In this document: positions 15,653-16,787 of the stretch, one piece after another
Numbering within the stretch: the stretch's first letter is position 1
Layout of the letters: every line of letters starts with the position of its first letter
IMG/VR virus record: IMGVR_UViG_2734482790_000002
Length of the DNA stretch: 45,103 nt
Reading direction: 5' to 3' (one strand)
DNA from: a virus
Taxonomy: Duplodnaviria; Heunggongvirae; Uroviricota; Caudoviricetes
Notes under the pieces: model-generated
Told to the model about the DNA's origin: nothing
Databases searched by the model: none
Seen by the model: the letters and a program-made list of their open reading frames with translations, nothing else
Position numbers and translations under genes: made by a program

Positions 15653-15681
15653 TTGCAAAAGTAGATAAAAAGGCATATATT
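15653..15681 (+). promoter_or_regulatory. candidate late promoter pR' (with presumed Q-utilisation site)
   Basis: TTGCAA - 17 bp - TATATT directly after the Q stop. Confidence 0.6.
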
Positions 15682-15731
15682 TCGTGTGAATCTAATATTT
15701 TGCCGTTTTTATACGTGATGGCAAAGCTAGT

Positions 15732-15759
15732 AAAACCCGTGACCGAGCGGGTTTTTTTT
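15732..15759 (+). terminator. candidate tR' terminator about 70 nt downstream of the putative pR' start
   Basis: aacccg-tgaccgag-cgggtt hairpin followed by T8. Confidence 0.7.
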
Positions 15760-15900
15760 ATCCCCAAAAAAATGGCATAGACATTAAACGTGATGATGAT
15801 TGTGCCAATACTTTCTCCATCAATGACGCCCCTTGACTGCATGGAATCCAATTTGTTATGTAATATGTGTTGATATTTTTGAGTTGTTAATGGTGTTACT

Positions 15901-16614
15901 ATGGATGACAGTGCTCTGCTCAGAAACTCTTCACTTTTTGTTGCTTATATGGGCTGTCTAGGATGGGGAAGCACTTATTTCTATGGATGGGGTACTTCAT
16001 TTTACTATGGCTTTCCATGGTGGGTTGTCGGGGCTGGTGTCGATGATGTAGCACGAAGTTTGTTTTATGCTGTGACAGTTATCGTTATATTCCTTATTGG
16101 ATGGGGAGTTGGTATTGTTTTCTTTTTGGGCATAAAACAAAAGCGCAATATACAAAATTTGAGTTTTATCCGGCTTTTTCTCGCGATATTGCTGCTTTTT
16201 ATTCCACCTGTTCTGGAGTTTTCGGTAATTCATCAGCATGTTGAGCCAGATGTACTGATTTTCTGCATTCTTGCTGCCTTTACAATCACGCTTTTTGTCA
16301 GGTCTGGAAGAAGACTTGTTTCAGTCAAATGTTTTTCGGAAATGTCTTTTATTCGTCATCACCGAATTGAGTTCATGATGGCTGGGTTTATGATTTATTT
16401 CTGGGCATTCTCTCTTATTGCCGGTTGGTACAAACCACAGTTTAAGAGGGAATATCAGGCGATCCACTATGAGAATGTATGGTATTACATTATTGCGCGT
16501 TATGATGATCGTCTGGTGTTATCGAAATCATACAGGAGTGGGGGTAAGAAATTCGTTATATTTAATAGCGGAAATATTAATGATTTTGAAATTAATACAG
16601 TCAGAGTGCGTTAA
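15901..16614 (+). CDS. polytopic membrane protein (about 6 TM, aromatic-rich) in a visibly AT-rich moron
   Basis: 237 aa; hydrophobic segments including LFYAVTVIVIFLIGWGVGIVFFLGI, FIRLFLAILLLFIPPVLEF and FMMAGFMIYFWAFSLIAGW; TTGACT -35-like hexamer upstream; AT-richness judged by eye, not computed. Confidence 0.6.
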   Translation: MDDSALLRNSSLFVAYMGCLGWGSTYFYGWGTSFYYGFPWWVVGAGVDDVARSLFYAVTVIVIFLIGWGVGIVFFLGIKQKRNIQNLSFIRLFLAILLLFIPPVLEFSVIHQHVEPDVLIFCILAAFTITLFVRSGRRLVSVKCFSEMSFIRHHRIEFMMAGFMIYFWAFSLIAGWYKPQFKREYQAIHYENVWYYIIARYDDRLVLSKSYRSGGKKFVIFNSGNINDFEINTVRVR

Positions 16615-16787
16615 AATTTCTTGAGTAACAAAGATTTTTACCGCCCGCCATTGAGAGGTTTTTTATGCCAGAAAAATGGTTCGGTACATAAAATGTGCAG
16701 GTGGTTATTAATACCGGTCTTTCAGCTTGCTGGCTTTTTCGACAAGAGTTATTGGTATGTCACGTTAACCAAAAAAGAGAAAAAGAC

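Follow-up and report, generated by a model that had tools for sequence, protein, structure and literature searches.

A PF27470/STM1630-family inner-membrane protein encoded behind Q in a Rac-like lambdoid prophage of Escherichia coli: probable accessory cargo of the Q-to-lysis interval

In a 45,103-nt stretch of viral DNA (IMG/VR record IMGVR_UViG_2734482790_000002; hereafter, the window), which represents a Rac-like lambdoid prophage of Escherichia coli, we analysed an AT-rich gene located just behind the gene of the antiterminator Q. The gene (15901-16614, plus strand, ATG start) encodes a protein of 237 amino acids that is predicted to reside in the inner membrane and, judged by its sequence, is a member of a small catalogued family, known as PF27470 "TfpB" in Pfam, as "STM1630 family protein" in RefSeq, and as PHROG 1521. 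We consider it somewhat probable that the gene is moron-type accessory cargo, reached by read-through under Q and also transcribed from a promoter of its own, and that its product works on the periplasmic side of the inner membrane to the benefit of the bacterial host.

The family assignment draws on homologue labels, RefSeq names, and profile matches. All 100 homologues carried the precomputed label PF27470.1 (E values from 1e-150 to 2e-20), the match to PHROG 1521, a group of unknown function, had an E value of 2e-85, and RefSeq gives the name "STM1630 family protein" to the protein of a locus 99.3% identical at the DNA level. A Salmonella protein (P0070), which we took as the STM1630 orthologue because it is encoded divergently to sseJ, was 47% identical over 100% coverage (E 5e-69). 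The original prediction, made from the letters of the sequence and its open reading frames, had recognised no family, and our local copies of Pfam-A and NCBIfam returned none for the protein; these copies appear to be without the PF27470 model. The queried segment of 1,361 bp was found with 100% identity in E. coli RM11911, RM13745, and others, and the prophage copy of RM11911 is labelled in RefSeq as a hypothetical protein (WP_047649218.1).

Searched with a profile, 1.84 billion representative proteins yielded only 73 clusters at E ≤ 0.001, and a locus scan with the alignment of close homologues gave five loci. Members from Enterobacteriaceae were found in Escherichia, Shigella, Salmonella, Citrobacter, Klebsiella, Enterobacter, Cronobacter, and Mangrovibacter. 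Distant members with 19-29% identity and the same architecture occur in Neisseriaceae (Neisseria, Conchiformibius, and Uruburuella) and in Pasteurellaceae (Actinobacillus, Gallibacterium, Avibacterium, Pasteurella, and Mannheimia), and a few metagenomic sequences are more distant still (14-19% identity). The named members come mostly from animal-associated genera. Within E. coli, a DNA match was present in 1,197 of 5,426 complete genomes (~22%), with a median of two places per genome.

The gene lies at the head of the late region. The Q gene (14974-15645, plus strand, with the RefSeq start at 14980) matches PF06323 Phage_antiter_Q with an E value of 7e-90, is annotated as bacteriophage antitermination protein Q, and is the start of the late-operon cargo interval. 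Right after it, as in the layout of the lambdoid pR', a consensus scan identified a pR'-like sigma-70 promoter consisting of TTGCAA, a 17-nt spacer, and TATATT (15653-15681, plus strand). A terminator scan then placed a tR'-like intrinsic terminator at 15732-15765 (plus strand), with a 9-bp GC stem (AAAACCCG...CGGGTTTT) and a T-run. A homologous hairpin is the annotated terminator after Q in phage 434, and it aligns across loci. Together, the promoter-like site and the hairpin would fit a pR'/tR' unit yielding a short terminated RNA, and the original prediction had rightly placed the open reading frame downstream of such a putative unit. Over the scans as a whole, promoter and terminator sites were no more numerous than in shuffled sequences.

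The same arrangement recurs in other phages. We fetched 80 viral-contig loci, 79 of which had upstream sequence, and in 70 of these 79 the gene stood 211-380 bp after Q, the kinds of Q tested being two PF06323 lineages and lambda-like Q; the remaining loci include other antiterminators (PF06530, PF03589, and DUF1133). The genes downstream differ among loci and comprise either a winged-helix (wHTH) gene and a methyltransferase gene, as in the window, or a DUF3927 gene with or without a SASA-type esterase gene. A comparison with Stx phages makes the presence or absence of the gene visible: 23 phage records matched solely the wHTH part of the query, the DNA identity of the wHTH stretch being 96% for phiP27 and 88-91% for more than 20 Stx2 phage records. 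The gene order of phiP27 is Q, GIY-YIG nuclease, wHTH, methylase, ileZ, argO, stx2e, and holin, and the GIY-YIG nuclease gene fills the slot that the membrane-protein gene occupies here. As phiP27 and 20-odd Stx2 phages share the wHTH gene and not this one, the membrane-protein gene is optional cargo of the Q-to-lysis interval. It had been described as lying at the locus equivalent to stx; this holds for the interval as such and not for the exact slot, since in phiP27 the wHTH gene, the methylase, and the tRNAs all precede stx2e.

The base composition of the gene sets it apart from its surroundings. Its GC content is 0.389 and its GC at third codon positions (GC3) 0.361, against 0.49-0.54 and 0.46-0.56, respectively, in neighbouring genes, among them Q, the methyltransferase, and the endolysin (0.49-0.53 and 0.50-0.56 for these three), and against a window mean GC of 0.507. 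Among all windows of 714 bp, the gene ranks in the lowest 1.8% by GC, and the kilobase with the lowest GC in the whole 45 kb is 15601-16600 (0.382). The AT-rich tract extends over approximately 15550-16800 with a GC of 0.34-0.45 in 150-bp windows; it spans the pR'/tR' intergenic region, the gene, and its 3' spacer and excludes the wHTH gene and the methylase. The visibly AT-rich character of this DNA, earlier judged by eye, is therefore confirmed by both GC and GC3, and the protein showed no homology to structural or lysis proteins. Two further low-GC islands (~0.40) with hypothetical genes were seen in the window, at 5401-6500 (between dicB and racR) and 10601-11500 (after a DUF977 gene), and these may hold accessory genes too.

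Upstream of the gene, we identified a conserved promoter-like element (15833-15862, plus strand) in which TTGACT at 15833-15838 is followed by TTTGTTATG at 15852-15860. One possible reading is a -35 hexamer separated by an 18-nt spacer from an extended -10 (TGtTATGTA; general form TGnTATGnn). The 80 loci compared here (the window and 79 viral contigs) gave 28 distinct upstream sequences, belonging to genes whose encoded proteins are 55-100% identical. In 26 of the 28, TTGAC was placed at -67 to -69 relative to the ATG, and in another at -77; TTTGTTATG, or a variant differing by one base, stood 13 nt after TTGAC, and the bases around the element diverged. The -35-like hexamer on which the original prediction had remarked is present, and its TTGAC is conserved in 27 of the 28 upstream sequences, the sole exception being a copy behind stxB. 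The arrangement TTGAC...TTTGTTATG is also kept in copies outside phages, on plasmids of enterotoxigenic E. coli (ETEC) and in an iro island, and the similarity of these copies to the phage and window sequences starts at this point. The conserved element may be the gene's own promoter and would then work independently of Q in the lysogen.

The protein is rich in aromatic residues, with F, W, and Y together making up 19.8%. Kyte-Doolittle analysis resolved only four strongly hydrophobic spans plus an aromatic/Gly N-terminal helix. For the structure, we used the AlphaFold2 run whose alignment included distant relatives (predicted local distance difference test score, pLDDT, of 79.8; predicted TM-score, pTM, of 0.73), a run with a shallow alignment of close homologues having been poor (pLDDT 58.8). 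The model has five long transmembrane (TM) helices, at residues 11-36, 47-77, 89-111, 116-135, and 155-181, and a C-terminal beta domain of five strands at residues 184-235. The aromatic-rich and polytopic nature of the protein had been recognised correctly in the original prediction, while the six TM segments proposed there are replaced in the model by five and the beta domain. In 29 family members, the mean number of K+R was 2.8 in loop 78-88 and 3.0 in loop 136-154, compared with 0.0 in loop 37-46 and 0.5 in loop 112-115. This distribution predicts an N terminus inside and a C terminus outside and would thus place the beta domain in the periplasm.

Conservation peaks in the first periplasmic loop (0.88) and in TM1 (0.86), which together contain AYMGCLGWGSAYFYGWGxSFYYGFPWW; TM2 then opens with (D/N)(V/I)ARSL. 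In the wide alignment, G175 was the sole invariant residue, and no polar residue was invariant. We rejected an enzyme on the grounds that polar residues are never invariant across this alignment; with no invariant polar catalytic residue in the wider family, the action of the protein is most likely noncatalytic.

The predicted fold was without a significant match in the structure libraries searched (PDB and BFVD). Foldseek comparison of the AlphaFold2 model with PDB gave a best E value of 0.4, to MscS chains, with a probability of ~0.1 and a TM-score of 0.16, and the best match among the viral structures of BFVD had an E value of 0.045 over only 66 columns. The family profile produced a single chance match to PDB sequences (E 3.7), 25 family members compared with Pfam at E ≤ 1 had scattered single matches only, and PADLOC assigned no defence family to the protein at E ≤ 0.01. 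Across PDB, BFVD, Pfam, and PDB sequences, no characterised protein was matched significantly in fold or sequence. The profile and structure searches that had been proposed for this gene therefore yielded a family (PF27470, PHROG 1521) and no significant fold match in PDB or BFVD. Two specific identities were rejected: a mechanosensitive channel of the MscS type, for which the match is nonsignificant and the predicted topology opposite, and a holin or lysis protein, for which there is no Pfam match and from whose cassette the gene lies 2.3 kb upstream.

The family is under purifying selection, with pairwise dN/dS (ratio of nonsynonymous to synonymous divergence) of 0.08-0.19 at dS from 0.35 to >2. 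Phages, plasmids, and chromosomes all retain full-length open reading frames of the family, with 43-100% identity, and the genes are AT rich in all these contexts (GC 0.32-0.42). In one phage (L074, IMGVR_UViG_2859677112_000002, 3540-5714), divergent Stx1-like A (RIP, E 1e-36) and B (SLT_beta, E 4e-45) genes are directly upstream of a family copy that is 68% identical, 234 bp from the stx1-like genes, and without the usual TTGAC motif. As the closest named protein of the subtype is from Enterobacter cloacae, this sequence may represent a phage of the Stx1e type.

Several intact copies are found outside phages. Two porcine ETEC Ent plasmids (L024, 1982-4709; L107, 1487-4214) have a 75%-identical copy divergent to eltAB, with insertion sequence (IS) elements around. 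The similarity of this copy to phages begins at the promoter-like motif, which suggests that the region of the heat-labile enterotoxin (LT) keeps a fragment of a lambdoid late region. An intact copy is also present on 106 Shigella plasmids, with S. sonnei, S. flexneri, S. dysenteriae, and S. boydii among those listed, and on pINV of enteroinvasive E. coli (EIEC). The pINV copy (L026 and L108) is 56% identical and has a GC of 0.32, with IS debris around it in the two inspected loci, and the copy on the EIEC plasmid lies a few kilobases from spa40. In strain ABU 83972, a pseudogene copy and a phage-type tRNA-Arg stand beside the iro island.

In Salmonella, STM1630 is divergent to sseJ, and S. 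enterica subsp. enterica, arizonae, and diarizonae have all kept the pair; across these three subspecies, STM1630 is 89-91% identical compared with 78-86% for SseJ. The pair is AT rich (L006, L011, and L012, ~4300-6717; GC 0.30-0.44). The homologues of Neisseria and Mannheimia are stand-alone chromosomal genes among housekeeping genes, with neighbours that are not shared, and a Gallibacterium-type copy adjoins capsule genes. The chromosomal homologues of Salmonella, Neisseriaceae, and Pasteurellaceae tilt the balance toward a role in host fitness and away from a phage-specific one. A 17%-identical member was also observed in an island next to icd in contigs of the Klebsiella electrica type (L016-L018, 3176-6741), which holds an AAA_23 ATPase gene, a small unknown gene, and SRAP-domain fragments and could be a defence or prophage-remnant island.

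The earlier suggestion that the gene is horizontally acquired cargo is supported by these comparisons: its composition is deviant everywhere, it is polymorphic in presence and absence, the promoter-like element travels with it, and intact copies occur outside phages. Published work on the Salmonella orthologue gives some indication of how such a gene is expressed. STM1630 is upregulated in macrophages and has a mapped -10 box of its own, which is disrupted in strains of sequence type ST313 (10.1101/689075), it groups with genes co-regulated with Salmonella pathogenicity island 2 (SPI-2) (PMC2639726), and it is downregulated in strain D23580 during macrophage infection (10.1101/450098). STM1630 and the adjacent sseJ were almost free of Tn5 insertions in SL1344, and the authors credited the scarcity of insertions in sseJ and other AT-rich genes to H-NS binding (PMC3632133).

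On these grounds we propose the following account. Since Q, a pR'-like promoter, and a tR'-like terminator immediately precede the gene, the late transcript would have to read through it once Q acts, as for stx. The conserved sigma-70-like element 68 bp before the ATG may also drive expression in the lysogen without Q. That expression would probably be silenced by H-NS and relieved under host-like conditions; we propose silencing because the DNA has a GC of ~39% and because this is the pattern reported for STM1630, with its mapped -10 box, its induction in macrophages, its co-regulation with SPI-2, and its location in AT-rich DNA beside the H-NS-bound sseJ. The protein is predicted to insert with its N terminus inside and its C terminus outside, with five TM helices and a beta domain of ~55 residues in the periplasm, where it would most likely bind, noncatalytically, a component of the envelope such as a lipid, a glycan carrier, or a protein. 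The gain would go to the bacterial host, as envelope or host-interaction fitness, and not to virion production or lysis. We place the benefit with the host because of the retention of the gene and its purifying selection outside phages and because the named members are mostly from animal-associated genera.

Several observations weigh against this account. Deleting STM1630 changed neither growth in LB nor replication within macrophages (10.1101/689075). A deletion mutant was hypermotile in one screen only (PMC4219756), and a later paper cautions that some effects in that motility screen may be polar (PMC4534456). The strict consensus scan omits the TTGACT element, which has no canonical -10 at 16-18 nt and whose -10 part is a poor hexamer. 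Downstream, no terminator-like site was found between 16614 and 16788, and the fold of 16605-16700 was unremarkable (z = -1.44). Finally, the position beside toxin and effector genes could result purely from hitch-hiking out of a cargo slot shared in phages; the closeness to stx1-like genes, eltAB, and sseJ may reflect a common site of cargo insertion just upstream of the gene and not a functional link.

The lack of a terminator in 16614-16788 led us to reject a self-contained moron unit with a terminator directly 3' of the gene. The composition differs from that of the flanks and the gene is present or absent at the same junction, as in morons, while no terminator lies directly downstream; the gene is thus not a textbook self-contained moron. 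The first terminator-like hairpin downstream (16972-16999, plus strand, with the site of the terminator scan at 16972-16989) comes after the wHTH gene, which is probably co-transcribed with the membrane-protein gene.

Among other explanations, superinfection exclusion or abortive infection, in which the protein would act like P22 SieA, T4 Imm, or HK97 gp15 by blocking incoming phage DNA or killing infected cells, is in our view unlikely while deserving real weight. A polytopic inner-membrane protein carried by a prophage, with a promoter-like element of its own and in a variable accessory region close to a DNA methyltransferase gene, is what such a function would lead one to expect; the gene is also very common in E. 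coli prophages, as the DNA matches in 1,197 of 5,426 complete genomes indicate, and the island of a distant member near icd has AAA_23 and SRAP genes. Nevertheless, PADLOC gave no match, the fold and profile searches revealed no similarity to known exclusion proteins, and the presence of the gene did not co-vary with a particular Q allele or lysis cassette, the two features compared. Orthologues have moreover long been kept at fixed sites free of phage, beside sseJ and under SPI-2 regulation in Salmonella and among housekeeping genes in Neisseria and Pasteurellaceae.

These phage-free copies also bear on the idea that the gene serves solely late in the lytic cycle, under Q alone, preparing or modifying the inner membrane, for example in the timing of lysis or in the release of toxin or other cargo. 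The gene is always the first of the late transcript, at the above distance of 211-380 bp from Q in 70 of 79 loci, it precedes the lysis cassette, and one phage has its copy after stx1-like genes without the usual promoter motif. However, the gene is missing from many lambdoid phages whose Q and lysis modules are the same, the window already has two holins and an endolysin, intact and selected copies exist where phage, Q, and lysis genes are all absent, and the promoter-like element, conserved independently of Q, points to Q-independent expression. We regard this explanation as improbable.

A role as an accessory protein of type IV pili, helping pilin assembly in the way of TfpY/FimB-like proteins, is what the label PF27470:TfpB might suggest, and homologues do occur in the piliated Neisseriaceae and Pasteurellaceae. 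We gave the name no weight: among 30 distant clusters there was no protein so named and none from Moraxella, and a literature search on "TfpB" returned papers on chemistry and anaesthesia and on an unrelated PilB-like ATPase of Acinetobacter, so that the name was not used for function. The plan of the protein does resemble that of TfpY-like proteins (Qaderi et al. 2025, PMC11841053), which also have ~235-245 amino acids (~240 here), an inner-membrane location, a short cytoplasmic N terminus, an N-terminal TM bundle, and a beta-rich periplasmic domain at the C terminus. These, though, have three TM segments, two beta-sheet domains, and genes next to pilin genes (PMC11841053), whereas the window protein has five TM helices and one small domain of five strands. 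No pilin gene adjoins the window gene or the inspected chromosomal homologues, and the sole prepilin-type gene observed stood two genes off in one metagenomic contig. On these differences we rejected the identity with TfpY/FimB-like proteins and consider a pilus function very improbable. To our knowledge, the known receptors of lambdoid coliphages are outer-membrane proteins and not pili.

That the gene is a functionless passenger, a decaying remnant persisting in the recombination hot spot of the late region, seems to us hardly credible. It has no known phenotype, many database entries are truncated, and some copies are pseudogenes, such as that at the iro island of ABU 83972; the low dN/dS (0.08-0.19), the full-length open reading frames at 43-100% identity, and the conserved motifs largely refute such decay.

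Accessory cargo with a host benefit, the reading that we favour, can be set against known systems. One of the closest is STM1630 of S. Typhimurium (SL1344_1560 or SL1560), after which RefSeq names the family and which shares 47% identity over its full length and a size of 237-238 amino acids. The two proteins have an aromatic/Gly motif at the N terminus, a beta domain at the C terminus, and the TM pattern in common, and both genes are AT rich with an upstream promoter region of their own. STM1630 differs in being a fixed chromosomal gene divergent to sseJ, without Q, tR', or lysis genes, whereas the copy in the window is prophage cargo behind Q. CPT_434_68 of phage 434 and a prophage copy in O157:H7 (WP_001302581.1) belong to the same family (56% identity) and occupy the same slot after Q and the terminator, with TTGAC...TTTGTTATG in front; in these, the next gene is DUF3927 (TciB) and not wHTH and methylase, and Q is Q82-like or lambda-like. 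A gene for a SASA-type esterase (DUF6645) follows DUF3927 in phage 434 and in one of the two inspected O157 prophages. A literature search on DUF3927 returned nothing useful, and one for a paper on the phage 434 genome yielded none.

With stx1 and stx2, the gene shares the Q-to-lysis interval, read-through under Q and probably a promoter of its own, a deviant composition, and polymorphism in presence and absence. In contrast, its sequence and fold are unrelated to theirs, and the product is an inner-membrane protein and not a secreted toxin or outer-membrane porin; the gene can co-occur with stx, as in L074, and takes the first slot after tR', as opposed to the slot after the tRNAs. Other cargo of the Q-to-lysis interval includes LT-II, the lc porin of phage PA-2, and nmpC of DLP12.

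Among the annotated genes of the window are those for integrase, RacR/YdaS/YdaT, DUF968, RusA, Q, two holins, a GH108 endolysin, terminase, and head and tail. The wHTH (TrmB-like) gene downstream of the membrane-protein gene (16788-16985, plus strand) encodes 65 amino acids with a weak TrmB match in Pfam and a match to PHROG 331 and, by sequence comparison, is phage backbone common to phiP27 and Stx2 phages. Next comes a gene for an N6/N4 DNA methyltransferase (17136-18182, plus strand; PF01555, E 4e-45; PADLOC MTase_II, E 2e-153), which is the next cargo or backbone gene within the Q-to-lysis interval. The two together (16788-18182) form a module also found, in the same order, in phiP27. A tRNA-Gly(TCC) gene (18400-18472, plus strand) takes the place held by the ileZ and argO tRNAs before stx in phiP27-type phages. 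Between it and the first holin lie ~480 bp without an annotated gene (18472-18950), the equivalent of the phiP27-type stx2e slot after the tRNAs. The lysis cassette (Phage_holin_8, Phage_holin_3_7, and GH108; 18950-20154) begins 2.3 kb downstream of the membrane-protein gene.

Farther away, a type II toxin-antitoxin pair of the ParE/RelE-ParD kind lies on the opposite strand (12590-13152, minus strand) in the nin-like region, upstream of the DUF968 gene. The tail fibre gene (41596-43158, plus strand) is annotated as a truncated pseudogene that has lost its C terminus, so the prophage may be adsorption defective. The far end of the window, beyond the gene for tail fibre assembly, gave a full-length Rfam match to IS009 (44865-45063, plus strand; RF02111, 223.7 bits).

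The gene already has entries in Pfam, RefSeq, and PHROGs and carries an annotation in hundreds of genomes, and cargo between Q and lysis is a classical idea. As the Q-to-lysis interval is where Shiga toxins are carried, a gene recurring there deserves attention; this is a common and selected family kept intact beside stx1-like genes, eltAB, sseJ, and on the Shigella virulence plasmid. More speculatively, and with considerable doubt on our side, the PF27470/STM1630 family might form an unrecognised class of host-adaptation (lysogenic-conversion) factors with a new fold, silenced by H-NS and induced in the host, spread among Enterobacteriaceae by lambdoid phages, independently kept beside four major virulence determinants (stx1-like, LT, SseJ/SPI-2, and pINV), and altering the envelope during animal infection; a novel kind of superinfection exclusion is an alternative possibility. 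Even as a neutral passenger, the gene would be a useful marker for the movement of toxin cassettes from phage to plasmid or chromosome. Should it prove a host-induced envelope factor or an exclusion protein, this would explain a very common prophage gene of enteric pathogens.

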